DNA of 43,746 nucleotides, taken from the sequence record PQ850621.1; one strand, written 5' to 3'. How positions within the stretch are numbered: position 1 is the first letter of the stretch; each line of letters opens with the position of its first letter. The translations under genes were made by a program, and so were the position numbers. The notes under the pieces are model-generated. The model had not been told where the DNA came from and searched no databases. It saw only the letters and a program-made list of their open reading frames with translations. Source of the DNA: Escherichia phage NicoleGrasset_Bas72. Of the stretch, positions 3,313 through 41,802 are shown one piece after another.

Positions 3313-3336
3313 ATAGCCCCGAAAGGGGCTTTCTTA
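3313..3336 (+). terminator. hairpin plus short T-tract between portal and head-morphogenesis genes (attenuator-like)
   Basis: AGCCCC gaaa GGGGCT then TTCTT. Confidence 0.35.
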
Positions 3337-3340
3337 TAGT

Positions 3341-4417
3341 ATGCTATTAACTTTAGCGCCACAGGGTTTATCTATGAGCTTACTTACATCCCTAATCAGC
3401 CATCAGATATGGCTGCAACGCACCGCATCCGGTGAAGTGAAAGACCTCACGCCGTTCATTCAGGAGATAAGGGATGAAATCAAACGGCAGGTGCTGTTAT
3501 TCGGTGACGACGGTCGCAGCACTGCGCGACTGAATAAACTGTTACGCGACCTGGAAGAAGCACTAACCGGTATTACGGGTGACTGGCAAACAAAGCTAAC
3601 AGACGACCTTAAGGAACTGGCGGCGTACGAGGCTGAGTGGAACGTAAAGACACTGACCGCCAACGTAGACGCGGAATTTGTTACGCCTACCGCTGAGCAG
3701 GTATGGGCCGCTGCCGAGTTTCAACCATTATCATTGAGCGACAAGCCCGTTGATTTCACCAAGCTGATGTCTGGATGGGGCGAAACGGAAGTAGCACGTC
3801 TTGTAACTGGAGTTAAGATGGGCTTTGTGCAAGGTCAAACCACACGGCAGATTGTTAAGAATGTTGTTGGCGCTGGTGGACTAGCCGACATCTCAGAACG
3901 TAACGCGACTACGGTAATCCGCACCGCGCTGTCCCACGTATCCAACGAGGCCCGTAACGAGACGTACCGCCAGAACGACGACATCATCGAGAAGTACGAG
4001 TGGGTGTCAACGCTTGACAGCCGCACCAGTACGATTTGCAGGGTCAGAGACGGGATGACGTGGGAAATTGGTAAGGGGCCGATGCCCCCAGCCCATCCGA
4101 ACTGCCGGTCGTGCACGGCTCCGGTAATCAGTTCCGAGTTCGACTTCCTCGATAAAGGCGCAAAACGCGCGGCTAAAGGCGCGGAAGGTGGCACTCAGGT
4201 AAGCGCAGACACCACTTACTACGAGTTCCTTAAACAACAACCGGCGTGGTTTCAGGACCAGGCGCTCGGCCCGGTGCGAGGTAAGATTTTCCGTAACAGC
4301 GGTATATCGCCGGAAGAGTTTCGCGTAATATCTGTAGATGGTTTCGGGAATCCGCTCACGCTTAAGCAGATGGCGGAACTCGATAAACGTGTTGCTGATT
4401 ATCTGAAAGGGGAATAA
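3341..4417 (+). CDS. head morphogenesis protein (Mu F / SPP1 gp7-like)
   Basis: 358 aa ORF after portal; canonical position; family assignment from memory of this module, not from a search. Confidence 0.6.
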   Translation: MLLTLAPQGLSMSLLTSLISHQIWLQRTASGEVKDLTPFIQEIRDEIKRQVLLFGDDGRSTARLNKLLRDLEEALTGITGDWQTKLTDDLKELAAYEAEWNVKTLTANVDAEFVTPTAEQVWAAAEFQPLSLSDKPVDFTKLMSGWGETEVARLVTGVKMGFVQGQTTRQIVKNVVGAGGLADISERNATTVIRTALSHVSNEARNETYRQNDDIIEKYEWVSTLDSRTSTICRVRDGMTWEIGKGPMPPAHPNCRSCTAPVISSEFDFLDKGAKRAAKGAEGGTQVSADTTYYEFLKQQPAWFQDQALGPVRGKIFRNSGISPEEFRVISVDGFGNPLTLKQMAELDKRVADYLKGE

Positions 4418-4880: not shown

Positions 4881-4909
4881 AAAGGCCCCATTATGGGGCC
4901 TTAGTTTTC
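4881..4909. terminator. rho-independent terminator, likely bidirectional
   Basis: AGGCCCCA tta TGGGGCCT then TAGTTTT; A-run on the other side; between convergent genes. Confidence 0.6.
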
Positions 4910-5111
4910 AACGGAATCTTGTGTTTAAATCCTGCTCATGGACAACCCTCAGAACAGTGTCATAATCCCCGTATCTTCCAGGTTCAAATATATCTAATGC
5001 CTTGTAAGCAGACATTGCGTCAGGGAAAACCTGCAGAACCTTTTTAACCCGGCACAAGTCACCGTCGAACTCTTCATCGAACTCTTGAACTACTTCGCAA
5101 ATTGCATACAT
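4908..5111 (-). CDS. hypothetical protein, 67 aa, acidic
   Basis: ATG with AGGAGGTG SD; sits between bidirectional terminator 4881-4909 and minus-strand promoter 5139-5167. Confidence 0.5.
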   Translation of the reverse strand: MYAICEVVQEFDEEFDGDLCRVKKVLQVFPDAMSAYKALDIFEPGRYGDYDTVLRVVHEQDLNTRFR

Positions 5112-5138
5112 TTTTCACCTCCTGTTTAAGTTAACTGA

Positions 5139-5167
5139 ATAGTACCCTATTATATTGGGGTGTGCAA
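5139..5167 (-). promoter_or_regulatory. promoter, TTGCAC-N17-TACTAT family
   Basis: On minus strand: TTGCAC, 17-nt spacer accccaatataataggg, TACTAT; drives 4908-5111. Confidence 0.55.
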
Positions 5168-14105: not shown

Positions 14106-14133
14106 AATTATACCCTCAGTAAGTTACTGGTGA

Positions 14134-14162
14134 ATAGTACCCTATTATATTGGGGCGCGCAA
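14134..14162 (-). promoter_or_regulatory. promoter, TTGCGC-N17-TACTAT family
   Basis: On minus strand: TTGCGC, spacer gccccaatataataggg, TACTAT; drives cassette 13779-14105 onward. Confidence 0.55.
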
Positions 14163-25905: not shown

Positions 25906-26692
25906 TTACGGCCCCCATGAACGCCTTTATAAATTCAGCGGCTACTTGCGGGACGATAGCATTGCCGTAACCGCGCAATCGTCCCACTCTGGCGGGTACC
26001 CCATTAGCCAGCGGGAATGTGCTGGGTTCAACTGGCCTGAATTTTCCATCCCGGCATCCGAGCCAGTCAGCATCTGACCAGAACCCGTTAGGCGGATTGG
26101 CTGTGTCAGAGATGCCTCTGTTTGCAGATTGTGGCCCCCGTTCCTGCCCTGATGGCCTGCTCCCGCCGAGTTGTTCGCACACGGTGTTGGCCAGTTGCTG
26201 CGCTCCGAAGAACAATCGATTCCTTTTGTGCGGTGCGCCGACGCTACAAGCTGGGAGTACGGCAAACCCGACGGCGTAGTCTTCTCTTTCCAGGTGAGTT
26301 TGTAAATCGCACATCCACGATTTTGCAATTGCTGCCGCAACCTGCTCCCCAAAGATGACTGGAGGGTGGCACTCGCTGATGAGGTCGAGGAGCACAGGTG
26401 CGAGGTGTCTCTGGTCGAACTGTCCGAGTTGCTTTCCTGCCGTGCTAAACGGTTGGCAAGGCGGACTTCCCGTCCATATAGGCGTATCTTCAGAAACTCC
26501 CGCAAGTCTGAGCGCGAGAGGCCAGCCGCCGATACCCGCGAAAAAATGACACTGGGTGAACCCGTCAAGGTCTTCTGGCTTAACTTCGGTAATGCTTCTT
26601 TCATCTACAACTCCAAAAGGTATGTGACCCTGTTTTATCAACTCACGCAGCCACGCGGCTGCGCCTTTATCCCATTCATTGTAATAGTTCAT
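25898..26692 (-). CDS. compact C5-cytosine DNA methyltransferase
   Basis: Motif I FFAGIGG, motif [11 protein letters not shown] (catalytic PCQ), motif VIII-like KRNRLFF, motif X-like [11 protein letters not shown]; only 264 aa, so the target recognition region is short. Confidence 0.7.
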
Positions 26693-26880
26693 TTCGCCAC
26701 CAGCACCAGCTCTTTACGCCCGAACGCCGTAACGTTACCCGTTACATCTTCGATAACCAGTTTACCGTTCGACTCGACGAACACCGTATCAACGGCAACA
26801 GGTTGACGTGTCTTAACGTTGAAAATCATGTCACCCGGTACGATGTCACGTGCTGGTTTGCGGTCGTATTCGTGTTTCAT
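26689..26880 (-). CDS. hypothetical protein (63 aa)
   Basis: AAGGAA SD; first gene downstream of promoter 26914-26942. Confidence 0.45.
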   Translation of the reverse strand: MKHEYDRKPARDIVPGDMIFNVKTRQPVAVDTVFVESNGKLVIEDVTGNVTAFGRKELVLVAK

Positions 26881-26910
26881 TTCTCAATTCCTTATATTGT
26901 TGGTGTGTGA

Positions 26911-27198
26911 TTAACTATAATAGCCCGCTATTAGGTCGTCAACCTGTTTAAACGAACCAACGACAAAAACATTTGCACCACGTTTACGCATCCGCTCGTG
27001 CTCTCGTAACTGGTGCGGGTCCGGCTTCGTGTTTTCGTCTTTCTTAACCTCGACGAACCAGATGATGCCACCAGGGAGAATTACCAGCAGGTCGGGGGCG
27101 CCGGAGCGCCCCTCATAAGACAGCTTACGAACGAGGCCACCAATGGCCTCGAATCGCTCTTTTGCGTATTTCTGCACGCGCCCCTCAGGCGTACTCAT
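26911..27198 (-). CDS. VRR-NUC domain nuclease (PD-(D/E)xK)
   Basis: 95 aa; GAPDLLVI...VEVKK pattern matches the D...E-x-K core of VRR-NUC; GAGGGG SD. Confidence 0.6.
   Translation of the reverse strand: MSTPEGRVQKYAKERFEAIGGLVRKLSYEGRSGAPDLLVILPGGIIWFVEVKKDENTKPDPHQLREHERMRKRGANVFVVGSFKQVDDLIAGYYS
26914..26942 (-). promoter_or_regulatory. sigma70-like promoter TTGACG-N17-TATAGT
   Basis: On minus strand; within the 3' end of the VRR-NUC gene; upstream of 26689-26880 and the methyltransferase. Confidence 0.5.
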
Positions 27199-27279
27199 CT
27201 ATACACCCCTCACGTTTCGTATGTTCAGTACCGCAGCGCGGACAGATTCGACAGTCTTCTTCATAAAACCAGTAGATTT

Positions 27280-27411
27280 TCATTCCAGCACCCACAGATA
27301 AATTGCGATGAACATGCCCAATATGGCAACCATCATGCCGTATTGACCCTCGTGACAGTAGACACCGGCAGCAAATCCCGCCAGTACCGCGATAATCAGT
27401 TTACTTGGCAT
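27280..27411 (-). CDS. small hydrophobic membrane peptide (43 aa), putative
   Basis: AAGGAG SD 9 nt upstream; MPSKLIIAVLAGFAAGVYCHEGQYGMMVAILGMFIAIYLWVLE; not in ORF track. Confidence 0.35.
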   Translation of the reverse strand: MPSKLIIAVLAGFAAGVYCHEGQYGMMVAILGMFIAIYLWVLE

Positions 27412-28096
27412 CTCTACATTCTCCTTCAGGCCACCTATTAGGAAAAGACGGTATATGTGAAACTTCTCTCGCCGCTTTTATTCTTTTAATGGCGGGACCT
27501 ATCTCCGTAACCATTTCAATGAATGTAAACCGGTGTCCTCTGGTAAGATTACATGTCTGACAACAAGAAACGCAGTTAGATACTATGTGCCCGCTTGTAT
27601 TATCTATGCGGTCTACCCCGACTTTTGTAGTGCTTCCGCAATAATGGCATGGCTGTGATATTAGTTTAATAACGCTTTCCAGTGTTAAATCGCAGATAAG
27701 CCCTTTTCCTGAATCTGCTCTTTTGTATCCTAACAAAAGCGCGTACGCCCGCGTCCTTTGGTCCTTATTCACCAGTTCCCTGCGTTGCTTGTTGAGACAC
27801 TCCCGGCAATCTTTCCTGATATGAGAGCCATTACTTTTATTTCCTTTCCTGAAGTTTTCCTCTGTTAAAGGTTTTACCTCCCCACACTTTCTGCATTTAA
27901 CAGGCTTCCCAGTGAAAACATACCAAGGGCTTTCTCGTCTGGATTTACCTTGTAATTTAAGTTTTTCGTCATACTTTTCCTTCCTGTTAGCATTTACACA
28001 CTCTTTACACCAGCGTTGCAGCCCGAGGCGCGTTGACTTTGAAAAATACTCTGTAGTCGCCGGTTTATCTTCGCCGCATCTTGAACACTTTTTCAT
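27401..28096 (-). CDS. HNH endonuclease with N-terminal zinc-binding Cys pairs
   Basis: CxxC pairs (CSRCG, CKEC, CRKCG) and HNH core HYCGSTTKVGVDRIDNTSGHIVSNCVSCCQTCN; ATG at 28096 with GGAG SD. Confidence 0.7.
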   Translation of the reverse strand: MKKCSRCGEDKPATTEYFSKSTRLGLQRWCKECVNANRKEKYDEKLKLQGKSRRESPWYVFTGKPVKCRKCGEVKPLTEENFRKGNKSNGSHIRKDCRECLNKQRRELVNKDQRTRAYALLLGYKRADSGKGLICDLTLESVIKLISQPCHYCGSTTKVGVDRIDNTSGHIVSNCVSCCQTCNLTRGHRFTFIEMVTEIGPAIKRIKAAREVSHIPSFPNRWPEGECRDAK

Positions 28097-28106
28097 TAAT
28101 AACTCC

Positions 28107-28141
28107 AAAAAAAAATACCGACATAGCCATTATATCGGTAT
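28107..28141 (-). terminator. rho-independent terminator (minus strand) between DNA polymerase and HNH genes
   Basis: On minus strand: stem ATACCGA/TCGGTAT with 13-nt loop, followed by a 9-nt U-run. Confidence 0.6.
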
Positions 28142-28173
28142 TTACATTTTCTACAACGTATTTCCTAAATCTA

Positions 28174-30354
28174 CTACTTGGCGTATCTGTACATTTCGCT
28201 ACCTTCTGCTACAAGAGGGAACCCCTCCGCCCATTCTGGTAATTCGCACATCAATCGCTCAAGCTCTGCGACATTGTATTCCGGCGTATCTGGAGTTTCG
28301 CAGATAATCTCATCGTGGACATGAAGTACAATTGGATAACCGTTTGCTTCTACGTTCAGCAGCGCGTTGGCCAGCAAATCACGGCACAACGCCTGAGTGC
28401 AGTTTTCCACCAGTTTACCAGAGTAGGTGTACTGGAAGCCCCACTGCCGGGTTAACTGGTTTTCGCCCTGGTACTTGATGCGCACGTTAGTAGACACCTT
28501 TCCATCTTCGTCTGTCTCTTTCGACACACTTAATCCGACGCCCGGGTATGACATAACGCGACCCGACGGCAACGTCATGCGCAACCACCAGCCCGCGACT
28601 TTGTCGCCGTTGTTGTCTGTCTCTATGTTACGCGAAAACTTAACGCCTCGCGGTCCTGCGGTGAACTCTTTACCTGGATTGCGGATAGCGGCCATAGCTG
28701 CGTCTTCAATATCTCGCCAGAAAGCTACTGTTTCAGGGTGTGACTCTCGCCACATACGCTTGATAGCGTCACAGGTACGCCACACTTTCTTATCAAGAAT
28801 ATACGATGGTCGGTCATCCTTCTCCCCGGGTCGCGGCGGTCGCTTGGCTTCCTGAATACGTGCCCATTCATAGCCGCGTGCAGTAGCCGCCCAGATGTGG
28901 TCCGGGAAAGTACCGTCCATTGTTTTTGACATATCAACAAGGTCAAGTCCGAGGTTCTTAGCAAACTGAACGAAAGCGCCAACACCACCAGCGTAGCCGA
29001 GGCCAAGCTCGCAGGCTTTACCAATCTGGCGCAAGTCTTTGCGTTCCTTCTTAATGTAATCCGGCTCCATGCCGAACATCTTACCCGCGGTTACACAGTA
29101 AATGTCCAGCCCGGCGCGGAACGTATCTAGCGCGGTTTCTTCACCCGCCAGCCACGCAAGACCGCGGCCTTCGACGTTAGAGTAATCGGCGACGACAAAC
29201 TTATGCCCAGCTTCCGGTATAATGCAGCTACGAACGGTAGATGCCGTCAGCTTGGCTACGTCAAATCGGCGGTGCGCCCGGCCCTTAAGTAACGCTGAAA
29301 TGCCTTTATCCAGTTCATCATCGTGATAGTACCCACGCGCCAGGTTCTGTGGCTGGAAGCCTTTACCCGCGAACCGTAACGTACGCTTTGCCCCACCGTA
29401 CTGGATACAACCGCGGCGTCGGTCGTCCGACGAGCGGCCTAACAGCAGCGGGTTATATTTCGTGGACGCTGTTGACGCGGCCCCGAGGCGCATTTCGATA
29501 ATCATCCGGGCGTCGTCCGGTAAATCATCATCTGCCAACAGGTCGTTAAGCGTCGACTTCTGTGCATTGTGTATGCGGTGCGCGGGCGCAAGTTCACGCA
29601 GAATCGGAAGGAAGTCTTTACCGGTAAGCGAGCCGCCGTATTTACGTTGAGCTTCTTCCTGTAACTGTGCCTTGTGCTTCTCTACGGCTTCAATCGCGGC
29701 TTCCGCCAGTGCGACGTCAACCTTAAATCCGCGGTCGTTGATTAACTGGTCAAGTTCCAGTACACGGTCTTCGAACTCGGAGTTACCCCAACGCGGCAGC
29801 TTATGGAACACTTCACGCATCGCTGTGATGTCACTCACGGCATACTTGATAAACAGCGCCCACTCATCCGGGTGCGTTTCCGCGGTATAGCGGCGGATTT
29901 TGTAGTTCTTTGGCGTAGGTTTAGAAAAACGCTGAATCAGCGCCTTGCCGCGTTTGTCTTTCGCGTTGTCTGCAGACACGCCCAGCACTTCGCACAGCGC
30001 ATCGAGTGACCCCGGCAGCGCGTGACGAAACGCCCAAATCATCGTATCAATGGTGTTGCTTACGGGAATATCAAAGCCCCAGCAGTGTTTCATGATGAGC
30101 CTGTCGAACATTGAGCCGTTGTGCCACACCATCTTAATACGACTGTTCGGCTTAACCAGGCGGCGCAGTGCGCGGTGCAAATCACCCGGCATGTCGCTGC
30201 CGTCGGTGCAATCCCATACCCGCACAGGCTCGTCGTCAAAAGCATATGTGCAGATAAGCACTTCGGTAGTCGGGTGTTCGGCGTAAGCGTAGGAGCCGAC
30301 TTTCTTTAAATCGGCTTCGGAGAATGTTTCAAAGTCCAGGTATAAGTAGCTCAT
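28174..30354 (-). CDS. family A DNA polymerase with 3'-5' exonuclease domain
   Basis: Exo I-like YLDFETFS near N-terminus and motif C-like LHVHDEIICE near C-terminus; start at internal ATG 30354 with AAGGA SD. Confidence 0.75.
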   Translation of the reverse strand: MSYLYLDFETFSEADLKKVGSYAYAEHPTTEVLICTYAFDDEPVRVWDCTDGSDMPGDLHRALRRLVKPNSRIKMVWHNGSMFDRLIMKHCWGFDIPVSNTIDTMIWAFRHALPGSLDALCEVLGVSADNAKDKRGKALIQRFSKPTPKNYKIRRYTAETHPDEWALFIKYAVSDITAMREVFHKLPRWGNSEFEDRVLELDQLINDRGFKVDVALAEAAIEAVEKHKAQLQEEAQRKYGGSLTGKDFLPILRELAPAHRIHNAQKSTLNDLLADDDLPDDARMIIEMRLGAASTASTKYNPLLLGRSSDDRRRGCIQYGGAKRTLRFAGKGFQPQNLARGYYHDDELDKGISALLKGRAHRRFDVAKLTASTVRSCIIPEAGHKFVVADYSNVEGRGLAWLAGEETALDTFRAGLDIYCVTAGKMFGMEPDYIKKERKDLRQIGKACELGLGYAGGVGAFVQFAKNLGLDLVDMSKTMDGTFPDHIWAATARGYEWARIQEAKRPPRPGEKDDRPSYILDKKVWRTCDAIKRMWRESHPETVAFWRDIEDAAMAAIRNPGKEFTAGPRGVKFSRNIETDNNGDKVAGWWLRMTLPSGRVMSYPGVGLSVSKETDEDGKVSTNVRIKYQGENQLTRQWGFQYTYSGKLVENCTQALCRDLLANALLNVEANGYPIVLHVHDEIICETPDTPEYNVAELERLMCELPEWAEGFPLVAEGSEMYRYAK

Positions 30355-30506
30355 TTCTTTTTCCTTAAATCCAGTGCCTTCGTTTCGCTGAGTCTTATTT
30401 TCATACAATCACGGCAAATCCACACATGCCTGTACCCGGCGCGGTACTCATCCGCGTACCACGGAAGCGGTTTCATATATCGGTATACGTGCTTACAGAA
30501 AAACAT
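30351..30506 (-). CDS. small zinc-ribbon-like protein (51 aa), putative
   Basis: Cys pairs (MFFCKHV...ICRDC); stop overlaps polymerase ATG (ATGA); not in ORF track. Confidence 0.35.
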   Translation of the reverse strand: MFFCKHVYRYMKPLPWYADEYRAGYRHVWICRDCMKIRLSETKALDLRKKK

Positions 30507-30519
30507 GATTTTCGACCCT

Positions 30520-30548
30520 TAGTAAAAAGGCCCAATGAAGGGCCTTAG
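30520..30548 (-). terminator. terminator (minus strand) after DUF2815-like gene
   Basis: On minus strand: AAGGCCC ttcattg GGGCCTT then TTTTTAC. Confidence 0.5.
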
Positions 30549-30565
30549 TTAAATTGATTCAGATA

Positions 30566-31192
30566 TTAACGGCGGCGACGTTCGCGGCGCGGTGCTTCAT
30601 CTTCTTCGTCGTCTTCCAGGTCGTCGACGCTTGCAGCAACTTTAGAGCCTCCAAACGCTTTACCTTCGCCAACGTACTTAATTGCCAGCAGGTTAACGCC
30701 GAGTACTTTATATTTCTGGCTGAACCAGATTTCAACGCTTACGTTAGCGACGCAGCCACTGTACACCTGTTCACCTTCAATCTGTTCGCCTTCTACATTG
30801 AAGTCTGGTTCTACCTGAGTTTCGCCTTTTTTAGATGTTACAATCAGAGGTTGTTTCTGCGCTTTCGCTTTGAAGTAGAAACCTTCCGGGAAGTCTTCAA
30901 ACGGATTGTCGCGCTCGGCGATGTCCTTAATCGCGCATTTATCCATGTGCTTGCCTTCGCCGTAGTTTGACTTCATCCATTTCTCTGCGGCGGCTGCACC
31001 CAACGCTTCTTCAACCACAGCGTAAACGGTGTCGTAGAGCGCGTCGATTTGAGCATGGTCAGACGGCAGGATGATAGTTGCGCTGTACTGGCCTTTAGTG
31101 ATTGAGCCGTCGTCGTTTTCACGGTCTTTTTCGCGTTCGAATACGTTAACCCATGCAGTGTTTACTTTACGCAGATTCAGTTTAATGCCCAT
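30566..31192 (-). CDS. DUF2815-like putative ssDNA-binding protein
   Basis: 208 aa with acidic DD/EE-rich then basic RRERRRR C-terminus; sits between nuclease and polymerase as in DUF2800/DUF2815/PolA modules; followed by terminator. Confidence 0.5.
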   Translation of the reverse strand: MGIKLNLRKVNTAWVNVFEREKDRENDDGSITKGQYSATIILPSDHAQIDALYDTVYAVVEEALGAAAAEKWMKSNYGEGKHMDKCAIKDIAERDNPFEDFPEGFYFKAKAQKQPLIVTSKKGETQVEPDFNVEGEQIEGEQVYSGCVANVSVEIWFSQKYKVLGVNLLAIKYVGEGKAFGGSKVAASVDDLEDDEEDEAPRRERRRR

Positions 31193-31245
31193 CTTGATTT
31201 CTCGCTTTTAAGTTTACTCCGGGAGCTGCCCGGCCAGTGATTAGA

Positions 31246-31274
31246 ACTATAATAGCTAACTATTCAGGTGTCAA
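31246..31274 (-). promoter_or_regulatory. sigma70-like promoter TTGACA-N17-TATAGT
   Basis: On minus strand; partly within the 3' end of 31260-31463; upstream of DUF2815-like gene. Confidence 0.55.
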
Positions 31275-31463
31275 ATAAAATTTCGCAATACGGACTATGT
31301 TCTCGAAATCATTCATATCAACGGGTTCGAATTCATCCTCCACATGGTTGTATCGCACCATCGTGCCGTTCAGGAACGTAAACGATTCCGAATGGATATA
31401 ACCGCCCCAGCGCCATATCATCACAAAATCTTTATCTGTGGGCATTTCATTTACTTGAATCAT
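31260..31463 (-). CDS. hypothetical protein (67 aa)
   Basis: ATG overlaps stop of upstream nuclease gene (ATGA); SD AGAGGAGGA lies within the upstream coding sequence. Confidence 0.45.
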   Translation of the reverse strand: MIQVNEMPTDKDFVMIWRWGGYIHSESFTFLNGTMVRYNHVEDEFEPVDMNDFENIVRIAKFYLTPE

Positions 31464-32740
31464 TCCAAATCCTCCTCTGTTACCTGATTCCACTCAGGAC
31501 GTTTGTCGTCTGCCGTTGCGACACATGGTGCGCCTGGCTTACGGGTAATGAAGTCTTTCAGTTCTTCTTCCGGTATGACTTTAACAGCTTCGGTAGGTGA
31601 CATGAGCACTTCTTTAGTCAGCTTGTCGCCGTAGAGTTCTGTTACTTTCTCCGCGTCTTTCCATGCACGATTACCCGGGCGGCCTTCAACCAACTTGTAA
31701 CCAGGAACTTTCTTACCTGAATGCAACGCGGCCGCCATAGCTTTCTCAACCTTGTCGATGTGCTGGCGCAACAGCGGCAACTTCTCATACTCAGCTACGA
31801 GTTGCTCCGGCGTCAGTTCCAGCACAAAGTCGTCTTCCAGTTCTTCCGCCAGTACAGAATTAACCGTCTTTGTACGCGCAGCGCATTGTTCAGAGAACCG
31901 GCACCACTGACAACCATCTACCGATGGCTTGAAGTCCGACGCTTTCAGGTTCTTCTTGCCACGGAAATACGCATCAAGCGCTAACAGCGCGCGTTTCTGT
32001 GCGAACTTAGCGAACAGTTCCAGTCCTTCAACCGAGATGTCCCACTCTGTCGCGCCCCCAGCGTAAGGCTGGAAGATGACCAGACGAACGGTTGTTATGT
32101 TATAACGTCTCTTGAGTCGACGATAAACACCGAGAGCGTAAAGCATAAGCTGCTTGTTTTCTTTCGCTTCGACGCGATGCCGTCCTGTTTTAAGGTCGCC
32201 GATAATGAGCATCGCGGAGTTACTTTCACCTGTAAAGCCTTCTATAACCGCCACTAAGTCGGCTGTCCCGAATGTCTCTAAATCATCCTCCTTACCTTCT
32301 TCACTCTCAGCAGGTACTTTGTAGCCCGGATGCAATACCTCAGTAAGATTGACACGCATTTCCAGCTTGGCGTAAGTCGCTACATCGATAATCGCTTTGC
32401 AGTAGTCGGTGTACTTGCGAACCTGTTCAATCATGTCAGCCGTAATCAGTACCGCGCCTTTCATAGGGCTGATTAACGCCTTAATCTGGCCTTTTCCTTC
32501 GTCCAGTACATAAGCGCCGACTTCACGTTCTAATGGCAACGCAGTGCCTTTGATGTACTGGTTAAGGTGTATCTCGGCTATGGTGTGCATTGCCGTGCCT
32601 AATATCGCAGCTTTACCGGACGTGTCAGGAATATCCTTTTCACAGGCCAGTGATGCGGCGCAGGTTAACCACTTTTTAGCACCTGACGGTGACAGTAAGG
32701 CGTGTACGTCGTTATTGCCGCCGCGTTCTTTTAGAATCAT
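31460..32740 (-). CDS. DUF2800-like PD-(D/E)xK (Cas4-like) nuclease
   Basis: N-terminal HALLSPSGAKKWLTCAAS signature; C-terminal Cys cluster VDGCQWCRFSEQCAAR consistent with Fe-S Cas4-like nucleases; ends with VTEEDLE. Confidence 0.6.
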   Translation of the reverse strand: MILKERGGNNDVHALLSPSGAKKWLTCAASLACEKDIPDTSGKAAILGTAMHTIAEIHLNQYIKGTALPLEREVGAYVLDEGKGQIKALISPMKGAVLITADMIEQVRKYTDYCKAIIDVATYAKLEMRVNLTEVLHPGYKVPAESEEGKEDDLETFGTADLVAVIEGFTGESNSAMLIIGDLKTGRHRVEAKENKQLMLYALGVYRRLKRRYNITTVRLVIFQPYAGGATEWDISVEGLELFAKFAQKRALLALDAYFRGKKNLKASDFKPSVDGCQWCRFSEQCAARTKTVNSVLAEELEDDFVLELTPEQLVAEYEKLPLLRQHIDKVEKAMAAALHSGKKVPGYKLVEGRPGNRAWKDAEKVTELYGDKLTKEVLMSPTEAVKVIPEEELKDFITRKPGAPCVATADDKRPEWNQVTEEDLE

Positions 32741-33099
32741 CGTAAACTCTCCAAATACAAGTTTAATGCCTGTAGCTGTTCTTCTGTGGGGATGAAAGAA
32801 TCATCACGATGTAAGTCGCTTAACTGTTGCAGCATTCCTGCGAACTTACGTCTTGCGTCAACAGTGGCCATGTGATGCTTTTCGCTTTTGTATATTAATG
32901 TTTTCGGGTAATCCTCAAGTCTTCCAGACGATTTATTCACGCGGAGTGCTCGAGCTTCATGCGCAATGTGGATGTACTTTTTGCCGTTTTGTAGCACAGT
33001 AGCTACGCCGCTGTTCTTTCTGCGGTCACCGACGGTGTAAACCTTGTCACCACTACGCAGATTAAGCCACCATTTATCCGTCATACCCGGTTCTCCCAC
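32737..33099 (-). CDS. hypothetical protein (120 aa)
   Basis: Co-oriented, overlapping start/stop in early-left operon. Confidence 0.45.
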   Translation of the reverse strand: MGEPGMTDKWWLNLRSGDKVYTVGDRRKNSGVATVLQNGKKYIHIAHEARALRVNKSSGRLEDYPKTLIYKSEKHHMATVDARRKFAGMLQQLSDLHRDDSFIPTEEQLQALNLYLESLR

Positions 33100-33353
33100 T
33101 GGTCAATTAAATGTCGTGTCTTGTGGTCACAATGCATCGCCCAGCTATACATCGACTCGAAGACATAAAAGTCACTTTTAACGAATGTCGTGCGCTTAAT
33201 CTGCGACAGGTGACGGCCTATATCTTTCGGCTTCGGTACTTTGCCGAGGTAGGCCATCTCTTCCATCTGGTGCGCGCCGGACGGCGCACGCAACAGCCAC
33301 AACGCCTCTGTGTTATCCCGTCGGTCAATACCTCGGTAGAGTTGGTAAATCAT
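33081..33353 (-). CDS. hypothetical protein (90 aa)
   Basis: Co-oriented ORF in early-left operon. Confidence 0.45.
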   Translation of the reverse strand: MIYQLYRGIDRRDNTEALWLLRAPSGAHQMEEMAYLGKVPKPKDIGRHLSQIKRTTFVKSDFYVFESMYSWAMHCDHKTRHLIDQWENRV

Positions 33354-33396
33354 ATTACGACCCTCTGTTAAAGCGGCCCGGAGGCCGCCAGATAAA

Positions 33397-33897
33397 TTAT
33401 TCTTCTTCGAAATACTTGTTCTTAATCGCCGTCAGGCGTTTCAGGTATTCAGCCAGGTCTTCGTCTTTAATCGCGGCAATCTTCATTTTCTTACCGGTGA
33501 ACTCCTCCAGCAGTTCATCGGAATCGTCGCACGCAGCATCGCTAGGACCTTCGTTAATTGCATCGTCGATAGCCTGAATCTGGTCACGAAGAGACTGGTA
33601 ATCGACCTCTTCTTTCTCTTCTTCTGGTTCTGGAGTCGGCTCCTCTACTTTAGCTTTACGCGGCTTGCGTTTCGGCTTCTCTTCTTCTGCTGGTTTAGCG
33701 TCAACGATGTCTTCACCTTCAACAGGGATTTCTTTTGTTGCTTCTTTTTCGCACTCAGCTACCGCTTCTTTGGTATACACTACCGTCTCTACTTCTAACG
33801 GCGCTGCAACTTGTGCTGACTGTTTCGCACTGTTCGCAGCAATCAGTTCATGTGCAACTACGAAACGTTCCAGTAATTTTAAGAATTGTTCTAACAT
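33397..33897 (-). CDS. highly acidic protein, first gene of early-left operon
   Basis: GAGGAGAG SD; E/D-rich (EPTPEPEEEKEEVDYQ, DDSDELLEEF); directly downstream of strong promoter 33929-33957. Confidence 0.55.
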   Translation of the reverse strand: MLEQFLKLLERFVVAHELIAANSAKQSAQVAAPLEVETVVYTKEAVAECEKEATKEIPVEGEDIVDAKPAEEEKPKRKPRKAKVEEPTPEPEEEKEEVDYQSLRDQIQAIDDAINEGPSDAACDDSDELLEEFTGKKMKIAAIKDEDLAEYLKRLTAIKNKYFEEE

Positions 33898-33928
33898 TTG
33901 TTTCTCTCCTCTCGTTTGGTATGGGCTA

Positions 33929-33957
33929 ACTATAATAGCGAACTATTCACATGTCAA
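33929..33957 (-). promoter_or_regulatory. sigma70-like promoter TTGACA-N17-TATAGT
   Basis: On minus strand; upstream of acidic-protein gene 33397-33897. Confidence 0.6.
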
Positions 33958-33961
33958 TGGG

Positions 33962-33990
33962 CTTTTCTAAAATAATTAATATGGTACTAT
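33962..33990 (+). promoter_or_regulatory. weak promoter candidate for HTH regulator gene
   Basis: TACTAT -10 at 33985-33990 with AT-rich upstream region; -35 poor (CTTTTC). Confidence 0.3.
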
Positions 33991-34021
33991 TCACATATCA
34001 ACTGACTAAGGAGTAATTGAC

Positions 34022-34237
34022 ATGCGACCATCTGAACTAGGCATCCGTGTAGAACAACGCCGCAAAGAACTCGGCATCTCCCAGCGCCGTTTGGCGGCCC
34101 TGACCGGCGTTTCCCAGGGCGCGATTAACCAACTGGCACTTGGAGTAACTCAGGACGTCCGCCCGGCAACGCTGTTCAAACTGGCGGAAGTTCTGGAAGT
34201 AGACGCCAAGTGGCTGGCGTTAGGTGAAGGGGCTTAA
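34022..34237 (+). CDS. XRE-family HTH transcriptional regulator (Cro/CI-like)
   Basis: 71 aa; classic HTH LGISQRRLAALTGVSQGAINQL; AAGGAG SD; own terminator 34227-34252. Confidence 0.7.
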   Translation: MRPSELGIRVEQRRKELGISQRRLAALTGVSQGAINQLALGVTQDVRPATLFKLAEVLEVDAKWLALGEGA

Positions 34238-34252
34238 AGCCCCTTTCTTTTT
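34227..34252 (+). terminator. rho-independent terminator after HTH regulator gene
   Basis: GGGGC ttaaa GCCCC then TTTCTTTTT. Confidence 0.6.
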
Positions 34253-34254
34253 AC

Positions 34255-36489
34255 CTATTCCAAATCCTCCTCTGTCACCACCAGCATCTCATTTGGTTCG
34301 TATAGTGTCTTCGGCCTTAATCTATCCCCTATTCTTTCGGGTATACGATATGTTCTCGGTACTACTTCGCCGTTAGCATCGCAACCAAGCATTAGTTCTC
34401 CATCTTTCAACATTTTATCAAGATGGGTGTTAGTCACAGAGAAGTCACCGGAACGAGCCACTATCTGCTGCTGAGTAAAACCGCGACCTGTGTCATCTGA
34501 CTGTTGCAGGTCTTCCAGTGCCGAAAGTATTGACTCCTTCCTTACTTCATCCCTGCCGCGTTTAACTTCTTCCTTTACTTTTTGCTTACCTTCTTTCGTC
34601 AACCCTTCTTCCCGCTCTTTCTCCTCGTCAGTTTTGAACGGCTCGAAACCCCACGGCATCAACACAAGCGCCTTGTGTGGTTCAGGAAGGTCCAGGTTTA
34701 CGATTGTGCCGTATTCTTCTGTGCCCCCCAGGAACTCAACCGCACGGTACTCTTTCGGCGGCGGAGCTTCGCGGAACTGCACAGACTCCAGCACCATGCC
34801 AACCGTTTTCTGTTGAGGACCGTGCTTAAATTTCGAGTGGTATACGTTTATTTGACGGTCGGTTGCACGTTCGATTGTCAGTTCCACGTCAACACCCGCA
34901 TACAGCGCCCCACTGCCGCGTGCTTTCTTTCCACCCTTCGGCGTATGGTGGACAACGCCTACTGCGGCTTTAGTTGCATCGCGTACTTCTTTCAGAATGG
35001 CGATAACTTTACCCATGCCGATTGCTGTTGATGAACTGTTCTCGTCGAACTTATCAATCGTCAGTGCCAGGGTCTGGTTAAGGGTGTCGAACGCAACCAT
35101 GCCAATTGGCTCGTCGCCAGCAGTTTCGCGCATTAACTTAATCAGGCTTTTAAGTTTGCCGACTTCGCCCATATCGATGACGTGTACATAATCTTTACCT
35201 TCCCCGCCATATTTAGCCGCTAGTGCATCAATACGGGTGCGTGTAGCTGCGCCACCCTCACCATCAATATAGAAATGGTGGCAACGCTGGGTATCCGCCC
35301 CCGCAAACCTGTACCCGGCGGCGCTGAGGTACATCATCCCCAGCGTATAGAACGATTTGTACGTGCCAGATTCCCCGACGATATCCCAGATACAATCCGA
35401 CGGCATGTACCCCTCAACGACGAAATCAGCCTTTACCGGCTCCGGTAACTCGTCCCCCTCTGAGTCCTCCTCTGAGTCCTCGTCGTCTTCCAGGTCGTCG
35501 AGGCTGCAAGTTACTGGGTCCTCGTTCTCTGTGCGGTGTAGTTCTTCAATCTCTTCTTCCGGTAAATCAGGCAGAGCCGCACGAATGCTGTTAATGCTGA
35601 TAGGTTGCTTGTCTACGTTAAGCTCGTCTGGCAGGCCGCACATACGCAGGGCCAAATGCTGTCGGCGGTTAAGCTCGGTGCAAGCGCCGTTGTTTGTATG
35701 CTGGCAGACAAAGCGCACTTCTTTACCGTCGAGCATTATGCTGGTGGAGCCCTTGCCTGTATGCAGATGTTCGTTAGGGCATGGCACTTCGTACCCGCGC
35801 CCGGAAGATAAAGCGTCAAGGCCAAGCTCGGCTTCGCAGAAGTGTGCTATATCCGCGTTAAGCCCATGCTCATCAGCGGCAAGTGTTTTAGCCTCACGCT
35901 TACGCAACCCCATCTCTTCGGCTTTCTTGATGTACCGCTCGGCACGGATAACACGCCCTTCTGTAACCGTTATCTTCGACTCTTTGTGCGGCAGGTAGAT
36001 AAGGCGGTTGCCATCTTCCGTGCAGTGGTCGCGCAACGCTTCGTCTATTTCTAACTCTGCACAAATAGCACGTTGCACCATCCACGCGTCGTTAGAGTTA
36101 AACGGCGTGCGAGCTGGAACCAGAACGCGGAAAGCGTAATCTCCGTTTTTACACACATGCTGATGCGATGCCGTTGTATGCAGAATATTGAAGAACGGTG
36201 CGTTCTTGAATTTGCGGGTAAGGTCGCGGTACTGAGTACGGTTGAGATGGTCAAAATCGAACTTAACCACACTGTCTTCCAGAATAGCGTTCTTACGGCG
36301 ACCGCCAACAGGCGCAATAGCTTTCTGTTTAATCTTGGCCGCGTCGTACTCTTCCTTAGTCCATGACGGGTCCACGGATAAACGCTTCGATGTATCGCAG
36401 ACATACTCCACAAACTGCTCGAGCGGCATCTCACGCGCTACAGGGTTTTTATCGAATGTGTTACGCAGCGTTGCAAAAACAATATTCAT
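34255..36489 (-). CDS. primase-helicase (N-terminal primase-like region, C-terminal RecA-like ATPase)
   Basis: Walker A GESGTYKS in C-terminal half; 744 aa; position in replication module; ends with VTEEDLE. Confidence 0.6.
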   Translation of the reverse strand: MNIVFATLRNTFDKNPVAREMPLEQFVEYVCDTSKRLSVDPSWTKEEYDAAKIKQKAIAPVGGRRKNAILEDSVVKFDFDHLNRTQYRDLTRKFKNAPFFNILHTTASHQHVCKNGDYAFRVLVPARTPFNSNDAWMVQRAICAELEIDEALRDHCTEDGNRLIYLPHKESKITVTEGRVIRAERYIKKAEEMGLRKREAKTLAADEHGLNADIAHFCEAELGLDALSSGRGYEVPCPNEHLHTGKGSTSIMLDGKEVRFVCQHTNNGACTELNRRQHLALRMCGLPDELNVDKQPISINSIRAALPDLPEEEIEELHRTENEDPVTCSLDDLEDDEDSEEDSEGDELPEPVKADFVVEGYMPSDCIWDIVGESGTYKSFYTLGMMYLSAAGYRFAGADTQRCHHFYIDGEGGAATRTRIDALAAKYGGEGKDYVHVIDMGEVGKLKSLIKLMRETAGDEPIGMVAFDTLNQTLALTIDKFDENSSSTAIGMGKVIAILKEVRDATKAAVGVVHHTPKGGKKARGSGALYAGVDVELTIERATDRQINVYHSKFKHGPQQKTVGMVLESVQFREAPPPKEYRAVEFLGGTEEYGTIVNLDLPEPHKALVLMPWGFEPFKTDEEKEREEGLTKEGKQKVKEEVKRGRDEVRKESILSALEDLQQSDDTGRGFTQQQIVARSGDFSVTNTHLDKMLKDGELMLGCDANGEVVPRTYRIPERIGDRLRPKTLYEPNEMLVVTEEDLE

Positions 36490-36686: not shown

Positions 36687-36974
36687 CCGTTTAGCCAACC
36701 CTTCCAGCAAATTTTTATACTCTTCAAAATATTCCTCGACCAAATCATCGCCGAAATAGAAGTCGATATACTCGAGATTATCTCTTACGTTAAGCGATGC
36801 CGACATGGTGCTTAGTTGGCGTAAGCTAATTAGCTTCATTTCTGTTTCTACGCAGAAAGGCCGGTAGGTATCAAGATGGCAAGAGATATTGAAGCATAAA
36901 GCGAACTCTCCGGCCACGGAGTGAACCATATACACTTCGTTTTCTGCTTTATTGTGGAAAATTACGCCTTTCAT
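36684..36974 (-). CDS. hypothetical protein (96 aa)
   Basis: Co-oriented ORF; overlaps upstream gene stop. Confidence 0.45.
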   Translation of the reverse strand: MKGVIFHNKAENEVYMVHSVAGEFALCFNISCHLDTYRPFCVETEMKLISLRQLSTMSASLNVRDNLEYIDFYFGDDLVEEYFEEYKNLLEGLAKR

Positions 36975-37155
36975 TTCACGTTCTCCTTAATCCATGCTTC
37001 GACTTTATTACGGTCAAATGTTCCCGGTAAACGGCGGCCCATAACCTTAATACAGCAGTCAGGGAATTTGCCGCTGCGCAACCAGTTATTAATGGTCTGA
37101 CGTGTCACCCCGATACGCTCGGCTACCTCATTCTGTGTCATGTAATGTTGCATTT
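36971..37155 (-). CDS. small HTH DNA-binding protein (AlpA/excisionase-like fold), start at internal ATG
   Basis: HTH MTQNEVAERIGVTRQTINNWL; ATG at 37155 with AGGGGA SD; track ORF extends to 37267 but upstream part lacks SD. Confidence 0.55.
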
Positions 37156-37250
37156 TTATATCCCCTGTTTGTTTAGTGAAACCGAGTATAGGATAGCGGG
37201 AATGTAAAAGCAACCAACCCCTGCAATATTTAATCTTTACAAAAAAGTTA

Positions 37251-37280
37251 TTGAAAGTTCTTGACACATGTTTGTATAAT
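37251..37280 (+). promoter_or_regulatory. sigma70-like promoter candidate TTGAAA-N18-TATAAT
   Basis: In divergent control region; would transcribe through palindrome 37307-37347 toward hairpin 37482-37510. Confidence 0.35.
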
Positions 37281-37306
37281 GGTTTTGGGACTTGTATATA
37301 TATTAC

Positions 37307-37347
37307 GGAGTTGACGAACCCTCCCCGAGGGATTCGTCAACCCCTCC
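37307..37347. promoter_or_regulatory. long imperfect palindrome (operator or RNA stem candidate)
   Basis: GTTGACGAACCCTC ... GAGGGATTCGTCAAC, arms about 14 bp with a short central spacer and one bulge. Confidence 0.4.
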
Positions 37348-37481
37348 CAGACAGCTGAGATGCTTGCCTTGTGGTTTAAGGATAAGTGTATCTAAATCTC
37401 ATTTAAAGAAGTAACCCGCTGAAATATCTACTGTTTCTTAATGTGCCGTAGATTCGCAACCGTAAAAATGTAACGATTATT

Positions 37482-37510
37482 GGGCAGGCTTAGGGCCTGC
37501 CCTTTAGTTA
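37482..37510 (+). terminator. terminator-like hairpin in divergent control region
   Basis: GGGCAGGC ttagg GCCTGCCC then TTTAGTT. Confidence 0.4.
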
Positions 37511-37574: not shown

Positions 37575-37603
37575 TTGCACACCCCAACATAATAGGATAC
37601 TAT
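37575..37603 (+). promoter_or_regulatory. promoter, TTGCAC-N17-TACTAT family
   Basis: TTGCAC, spacer accccaacataatagga, TACTAT; about 35 nt upstream of gene at 37638. Confidence 0.55.
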
Positions 37604-37637
37604 TCACTTATCGAAACGAGACAGAGGAGTGAGGGTT

Positions 37638-38748: not shown

Positions 38749-38777
38749 TTGCACACTAATATAGAATAGGCTACTAT
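38749..38777 (+). promoter_or_regulatory. promoter, TTGCAC-N17-TACTAT family
   Basis: TTGCAC, spacer actaatatagaataggc, TACTAT; upstream of 38809. Confidence 0.5.
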
Positions 38778-38808
38778 TCATTTACACAAACGAGAGGAGA
38801 GACAGAAT

Positions 38809-41752: not shown

Positions 41753-41773
41753 TCTATTTTCTGCAATGACTAG

Positions 41774-41802
41774 TTGACTATTACCTACGACCCTATTATA
41801 TT
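41774..41802 (+). promoter_or_regulatory. sigma70-like promoter TTGACT-N17-TATATT
   Basis: Canonical spacing; follows terminator 41720-41752; precedes 41836. Confidence 0.55.

Follow-up and report, generated by a model that had tools for sequence, protein, structure and literature searches.

We analysed a stretch of 43,746 nucleotides (nt) from Escherichia phage NicoleGrasset_Bas72 (sequence record PQ850621.1), hereafter called the window. The work centres on three promoter-like sites on its minus strand, on a 14-bp dyad that these sites share, and on xre, a small gene of the Cro type next to the first of them. The 43.7-kb window is essentially the complete genome of a Kagunavirus-like (Guernseyvirinae) E. 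coli siphophage. Positions 26000-35000 are 93-97% identical to the Escherichia phages vB-Eco-KMB35, Bas73/74 and DUEC01, and several hundred Salmonella and Escherichia phages match this part at 80-95%. The replication module forms the minus-strand block 24.3-37.3 kb, with genes for a helicase-primase, an exonuclease, a DUF2815/Enc34 single-stranded DNA (ssDNA)-binding protein (Pfam 2.2e-15), a DNA polymerase next downstream of it, a VRR-NUC nuclease, a cytosine methyltransferase and a helicase. The methyltransferase and the helicase were named from the Bas74 annotation.

An earlier reading of the letters alone (the original prediction) had proposed three minus-strand promoters of the form TTGAC(A/G)-N17-TATAGT, at 33929-33957 (site 1), 31246-31274 (site 2) and 26914-26942 (site 3). 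The pattern matched the 43,746 bp exactly three times, at these positions and always on the minus strand, and had no match in any of 100 dinucleotide-preserving shuffles. In a sigma-70 scan of the whole window the three sites were among the four best matches (11/12, 11/12 and 10/12, each with a 17-bp spacer), and in a promoter scan of 24-43.7 kb they ranked first, second and fifth. Each of them lies 25-50 nt upstream of an ATG preceded by a Shine-Dalgarno sequence on the same strand. Site 1 (TTGACA-N17-TATAGT, predicted start ~33922) is intergenic and is followed by the genes from that of a 166-aa acidic protein (33397-33897) through the exonuclease. Site 2 (TTGACA-N17-TATAGT, predicted start ~31239) overlaps the end of the open reading frame (ORF) 31260-31493, namely its last five codons and its TAG stop (31262-31260), and downstream of it come the DUF2815/Enc34 gene (30566-31192) and then the DNA polymerase gene. 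Site 3 (TTGACG-N17-TATAGT, predicted start ~26907) is located wholly within the last ten codons of the VRR-NUC ORF 26911-27198 (stop 26913-26911), and is followed by a 63-aa ORF, the methyltransferase and the helicase. In the window, two of the three sites are therefore embedded in the 3' ends of upstream coding sequences, and the genes downstream of them are those that had been proposed, namely the DUF2815-like gene and the methyltransferase/helicase pair.

The context of the sites differs among relatives. At site 1, all of 20 unique Kagunavirus sequences have the same hexamers and the same arms of the dyad described below, and their spacers measure 17 or 18 nt. Site 2 directly follows the exonuclease stop codon in many relatives and there lies outside any ORF. 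Site 3 travels with the VRR-NUC gene; since it is missing from relatives in which this gene is replaced, it is dispensable. In Salmonella phage Jersey (NC_021777.1) two sigma-70-like promoters are annotated that are homologous to our sites, one at 29238-29266 inside gp39 (VRR-NUC), corresponding to site 3, and one at 32925-32953 upstream of the DUF2815 gene, corresponding to site 2. The Jersey homologue of site 3 reads TTGATA-N17-TATATT. That of site 1 reads TTGCAT-N17-TATAGT, carries the dyad with one mismatch and is not annotated. Near-consensus hexamers, their retention across two genera and the Jersey annotation of two of the sites all agree with the proposal that promoters punctuate the replication module. 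Sites 1-3 are thus very probably functional host sigma-70 promoters that subdivide the leftward module, their activity being predicted from sequence. Internal re-initiation that boosts the downstream genes is plausible. Taken by themselves, however, these promoters add little. They are conserved, ordinary sigma-70 promoters, already known in kind, of the host type expected where a phage encodes no RNA polymerase, and the annotation already exists in relatives.

The original prediction had also pointed out that the spacers resemble each other. In all three, this resemblance is the sequence AATAG-N4-CTATT, which stands directly before the -10 hexamer and overlaps it by 1 nt. At site 1 the dyad (O1, 33934-33947) extends from about -25 to -12, reaching 1 nt into the -10 hexamer. 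The left arm of the site 2 dyad (31251-31264) holds the stop codon of the upstream ORF, and the dyad of site 3 (26919-26932) is encoded in the Leu-Ile ... Tyr-Tyr codons of the VRR-NUC C-terminus. AATAG-N4-CTATT occurs in seven exact copies in the window, against 0.04 expected, and in 12 copies when up to one mismatch is allowed, against 1.05 expected. It is the most over-represented gapped dyad genome-wide, both in the window and in Jersey. The two annotated Jersey promoters contain the same dyad in the spacer as sites 2 and 3, and the Jersey annotation does not mention it. A role of the dyad as a hairpin or at the RNA level was rejected, as the three 29-mers fold at -2.5 kcal/mol with z ~0.

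The remaining four exact dyads (at 5138, 14133, 37591 and 38765) make up the TACTAT family of promoters. Read toward the downstream gene, these sites have the form TTGCAC-N17-TACTAT, and the right arm of the dyad lies inside the -10 hexamer. On the plus strand, the promoter 37575-37603 (TTGCAC-N17-TACTAT, dyad 37591-37604 over the -10) is predicted to drive rightward small genes; its direction is fixed by the Jersey homologue, which carries a consensus TTGACA. A second plus-strand member is located at 38749-38777 (dyad 38765-38778). On the minus strand, the promoter 14134-14162 (TTGCGC-N17-TACTAT, dyad 14133-14146) would drive a leftward exonuclease operon (14105-12356), and the promoter 5139-5167 (dyad 5138-5151) a leftward 67-aa ORF (4908-5111). 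At sites 1-3 the dyad occupies about -25 to -12, and in the TACTAT family it lies over the -10 hexamer, so that TATAGT and TACTAT sites differ in the register of the dyad to the -10 as well as in the orientation of the core TGAATAG...CTATTAT to transcription. The TATAGT sites had been put forward as a second promoter class that differs from the TACTAT family in its -10. The hexamers are indeed different, but the separation into classes is not supported as proposed: because the same over-represented dyad is found in both, the TATAGT and TACTAT promoters are one set sharing one dyad.

Two further copies with one mismatch fall at gene starts or promoter-like sites. One (3335-3348) straddles the ATG of the head-morphogenesis ORF 3341-4417, and the other (41769-41782) coincides in part with the -35 hexamer of a promoter-like site on the plus strand (41774, TTGACT-N17-TATATT). 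At the VRR-NUC tail (26911-26942; Jersey 29235-29266), the Leu-Ile and Tyr-Tyr codons at the dyad arms are conserved between the genera, and the residues encoded by the dyad centre differ (AG vs EH). A constraint at the DNA level appears to shape this protein tail.

For a comparison across the Guernseyvirinae, 64 IMG/VR loci were gathered around homologues of xre and aligned (MAFFT) on anchors outside the dyad, namely the xre start, the downstream hairpin and the downstream ribosome-binding site (RBS). Conservation among instances selected by the dyad itself was left out, as it is circular for the arms. Little or no variation was seen in the -35, the two arms and the -10 among 20 Kagunavirus-like and 12 Jerseyvirus-like loci, while the dyad centre varied over these 32 loci (TTCG, TTCA, TTAG, TTGG, CAAG, CGAG, CGAA, CACA, TACT and others). 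The linker between the -35 and the left arm measured 2-3 nt, which results in a spacer of 17 or 18, and the flanks upstream of the sites were mosaic across the two genera.

A third clade, consisting of Salmonella phage vB_STM-ZS and similar contigs (ZS-like), has kept the -35 and the -10, for example as TTGCAT-N18-TATAGT beside xre. AATAG-N4-CTATT was not found in this clade, even when one mismatch was allowed. Instead, ZS carries ATTAG-N4-GTATT at the homologous promoters, in three exact copies against 0.09 expected, plus near copies; the pattern was taken from one of the three copies, and two are independent. De novo searches of the ZS-like sequences yielded only noise with 9-mers and no motif family with a dyad search. 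Jersey and ZS both infect Salmonella and yet carry different variants of the motif. Because the motif changes in concert on the same host genus, it would be read by a trans-acting factor encoded by the phage rather than by a host factor or by sigma-70. The ZS-like clade also differs in gene order: its helicase-primase block runs in the same direction as xre, the reverse of the arrangement in the window.

The spacer of a promoter is not contacted base-specifically by sigma-70 RNA polymerase. The conserved left arm of the shared dyad sits in this part, and this points to a bound regulator, which the original prediction had not considered. An operator also fits better than a core promoter element because, in addition to the position of the left arm, the dyad does not keep one register to the -10 hexamer at all sites. 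In our judgement the dyad is likely to be the operator of a phage-encoded factor. The simplest competing account is that these are plain constitutive sigma-70 promoters without any regulator, and that the likeness of their spacers reflects descent, duplication of a cassette or a preference for AT-rich sequence beside the -10. The near-consensus hexamers alone would give activity, and the ZS-like promoters retain the -35 and -10 without a perfect dyad, which is thus not required for a promoter. This account does not explain why the arms stayed invariant while centre, linker and flanks diverged across two genera, why unrelated promoters carry the same dyad in a different register and facing the other way, or why a third clade shows a concerted variant. 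We therefore consider it unlikely.

If the dyad is an operator, the gene beside site 1 is an obvious candidate for its regulator. xre (34022-34237, plus strand) is divergent from site 1, starts behind an AAGGAG Shine-Dalgarno sequence and encodes a 71-aa helix-turn-helix (HTH) protein of the XRE/Cro-C1 type. It ends in an intrinsic terminator (34226-34246, plus strand), convergent with the end of the helicase-primase gene. The protein matched Pfam HTH_3 (PF01381) with 49.7 bits against a cut-off of 23 (E 3.9e-13), and the closest sequences with a solved structure were a 434 repressor variant, 434 Cro and the DNA-binding domain of the 434 repressor (E 5e-6 to 1e-5). A single-sequence AlphaFold2 model (mean predicted local distance difference test, pLDDT, 81.7) showed the five-helix Cro/C1 fold and superimposed on 434 Cro with a root-mean-square deviation of 1.7 Å at 39% identity. 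Foldseek assigned the model a probability of 1.00 to HipB, 434 Cro and the 434 repressor, with SinR and controller proteins also matching; the E-values were weak (~0.02-0.03), as expected for a small domain. The protein is conserved in 487 phage records, with 91-99% identity in Kagunavirus, 46-48% in Jerseyvirus and 39% in ZS, and its gene is present in all three clades. Records label it variously as repressor, Cro, DicA or hypothetical. Often the gene is left out of annotations altogether; this is the case in Bas74, where a 31-aa antisense ORF is annotated instead.

Two copies of the dyad flank the divergent promoter region of xre. Besides O1 there is a degenerate copy, O2 (33978-33991; AATAGTACCATATT on the minus strand), with one mismatch and 44 bp from O1. 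O2 lies across the predicted promoter of xre (TG-n-TACTAT, 33982-33990, plus strand). The Jersey counterpart of this promoter is TTGCGT-N17-TACTAT, again with O2 over the -10 hexamer (derived by hand from the reverse complement). The distance from O1 to O2 is 44-45 bp in Kagunavirus and 55 bp in Jersey (hand count), which is one helical turn more. Among more distant XRE homologues from IMG/VR, none had the dyad nearby, and these give no help in linking the protein to the site. Several features of a Cro/CI-type operator are present, namely a dyad of ~14-18 bp, conserved arms, a variable centre, overlap with the core promoter and two copies beside the xre promoter.

The closest parallel is phage 434, whose operators are 14 bp long, with 5+5 contacted outer bases and four central bases that are not contacted (PMC1636474). 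The XRE protein has the same length (71 aa), family and fold as 434 Cro. The dyad has the same 5-4-5 geometry as the 434 operators, with a variable centre, and both overlap core promoters; as in 434, two sites flank the divergent promoter region of the regulator itself. There are also clear differences. The arms are AATAG here and ACAA(T/G) in 434, seven to eight sites are dispersed over the genome instead of two triplets, and the phage has no CI partner, integrase or lysogeny module; for the phage studied here, binding is a prediction. A lambdoid immunity region is not what we found, since the Jersey and ZS records contain no annotated integrase or CI and the candidate regulator is a single-domain protein of only 71 aa. 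For the related phage Golestan, lysogeny genes were reported to be absent (PMC7203180). The proposed control resembles that of Cro at lambdoid early promoters, but in a phage without a lysogeny module. The controller (C) proteins of restriction-modification systems offer a second parallel, as they are small dimers of the XRE fold that bind dyads over their own promoter and time expression, like the model proposed here. C.BclI, C.AhdI and C.Esp1396I were among the fold matches of the XRE protein, with 19-31% identity, below that of 434 Cro. C proteins, often activators, work through one or two operators in a single operon, while the sites here are genome-wide and inside core promoters.

Several observations weigh against a Cro-like regulator acting through this dyad. 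The recognition helices of the XRE proteins differ between the window (SQGAINQ) and Jersey (SQSLITH) despite the shared arms, and ZS has a third helix (TQSAISH) with different arms, so that changes in the helix do not simply track changes in the arms. The ZS variant is not a true dyad either, its half-sites being ATTAG and AATAC, which is awkward for a homodimer. In addition, the four TACTAT sites share ~32 nt (TTGCACACCCCAAyATAATAGGnTACTATTCA), more than an operator and the hexamers explain; the sites may be under some further constraint, or a cassette may have spread recently. The only RNA-sequencing study of a Kagunavirus (vB_Eco_K1B4) is of low resolution, with coarse, gene-level time classes up to 120 min; its four early genes include an HTH gene, whose description does not allow it to be equated with xre. 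Finally, an early shut-off may be too simple a scheme if the rightward dyad promoters feed late genes by read-through. Considering all this, we give the XRE protein about an even chance of being the factor that binds the dyad, and we refer to it as the predicted binder.

A further point of this kind concerns a second DNA-binding protein of the phage. The HTH_17 protein (excisionase/MerR-like; 36971-37267, minus strand) is the chief other candidate among phage proteins that might bind the dyad as an operator. That it binds DNA is suggested by its Pfam match (HTH_17, 6.6e-8) and its assignment to phrog_66. Its conservation between Kagunavirus and Jersey, whose arms are identical, exceeds that of the XRE protein (64% vs 46% identity), and it was not detected in the ZS-like clade, which is without the perfect dyad. 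However, HTH_17 is absent from the whole ZS genome, and the variant motif nevertheless recurs at the homologous ZS promoters. No dyad is adjacent to its gene; the nearest one, 324 bp from the GTG start, is part of a rightward promoter. To our knowledge, no small excisionase-type protein binds 5-4-5 dyads. Because ZS keeps the motif family without HTH_17, the XRE protein is favoured over it, though not decisively, and binding by HTH_17 or another phage protein appears quite unlikely.

Alternatively, the dyad could be the site of a host factor exploited by the phage. An AT-rich dyad near promoters, common to phage genera of E. coli and Salmonella, would be in line with this. The different concerted variants of Jersey and ZS on the same host genus speak against it, and comparison by eye with the consensus sites of CRP, ArgR and Fur gave no convincing match to the dyad. 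A host factor is thus very improbable.

The motif itself has been published before. For the Kagunavirus phages fBC-Eco01 (PMC9825357) and Golestan (PMC7203180), a "phage promoter" 20-mer with the consensus tgAATAGTa-ccTATTat-T was listed by PHIRE with seven copies per genome, and the 20-mers of fBC-Eco01 were labelled as promoters of a phage RNA polymerase (PMC9825357). This 20-mer is the same motif as the dyad, and the copies include O1 and O2 beside xre. Apart from these listings the label has little in its favour, and we rejected it as scarcely credible: the annotations of the syntenic Jersey and ZS genomes list no gene for such a polymerase, all ORFs of the window with at least 600 aa are accounted for by synteny, and the motif stands in both orientations to the downstream genes, embedded in good sigma-70 promoters. 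The PHIRE papers mention neither the dyad symmetry nor the embedding in sigma-70 promoters nor the neighbouring Cro-like gene. Within the limited literature that could be searched, no paper came to light in which the symmetry of the dyad is remarked on or the motif is connected with a Cro-like gene. What is new here is therefore the shared operator-like dyad together with its probable Cro-like binder, while the type of circuit is well known.

Sigma-70 promoters that carry an operator for a 434-Cro-like XRE regulator are, in our view, the best explanation of the data, with chances slightly above even. The host RNA polymerase would start at sites 1-3 and at the TACTAT-family promoters, that of xre included. 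The replication module would thereby be divided into separate units: one from the acidic protein gene to the exonuclease gene (site 1), one for ssDNA-binding protein and DNA polymerase (site 2) and one for methyltransferase and helicase (site 3). With rising levels of the Cro-like dimer, the 14-bp operators between about -25 and -6 would become occupied and RNA polymerase would be blocked, so that the replication, early and xre promoters would be turned down together. What the analysis shows are the motifs with their statistics and conservation, and the family and fold of the protein; that the promoters are active, that the protein binds the dyad and in which direction it regulates are inferred.

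A more general proposal is tentative. Throughout the Guernseyvirinae, one 434-Cro-like protein might govern non-structural expression via 14-bp operators placed in nearly all sigma-70 promoters (7-10 per genome), its own and those inside coding sequences among them, and operator specificity might have drifted together with the regulator in a sub-clade, from AATAG/CTATT to ATTAG/GTATT. We would put this at somewhat less than an even chance. If true, it would represent a genome-wide Cro regulon without a lysogeny switch in strictly lytic siphophages. The dyad model provides a concrete and cheaply testable scheme of temporal control in this subfamily, whose members are often isolated for phage therapy and biocontrol and are sometimes flagged over a "repressor" gene. 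Reading the motif as an operator within sigma-70 promoters corrects the published label of phage RNA polymerase promoters, and the 14-mer can serve as a handle for annotating or engineering Guernseyvirinae genomes.

Some additional elements were observed in and around the replication module. Just downstream of site 2, the 5' untranslated region of the DUF2815/Enc34 gene contains a GC hairpin (31219-31233, minus strand; CCGGG-N5-CCCGG). Throughout the Kagunavirus, Jerseyvirus and ZS-like clades its stem stays the same while the loop changes, and it might act as a stabiliser or as an operator of translation. The DNA polymerase gene is followed by a minus-strand terminator (28113-28143) with a 13-bp stem and a perfect TATAAT in the loop, directly followed by the RBS of the next gene (27401-28108). 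An Rfam scan of the window gave no family above threshold. A strong sigma-70 match on the plus strand (37251-37280, TTGAAA-N18-TATAAT, 11/12) is followed over ~220 nt only by short ORFs (35-40 aa) with TTG starts. That stretch (within 37251-37505, plus strand) folds far better than shuffled sequences (-72.3 kcal/mol, z = -4.4); it matches no Rfam family and closes at an intrinsic terminator (37482-37502), and we regard it as a candidate phage small RNA or leader.

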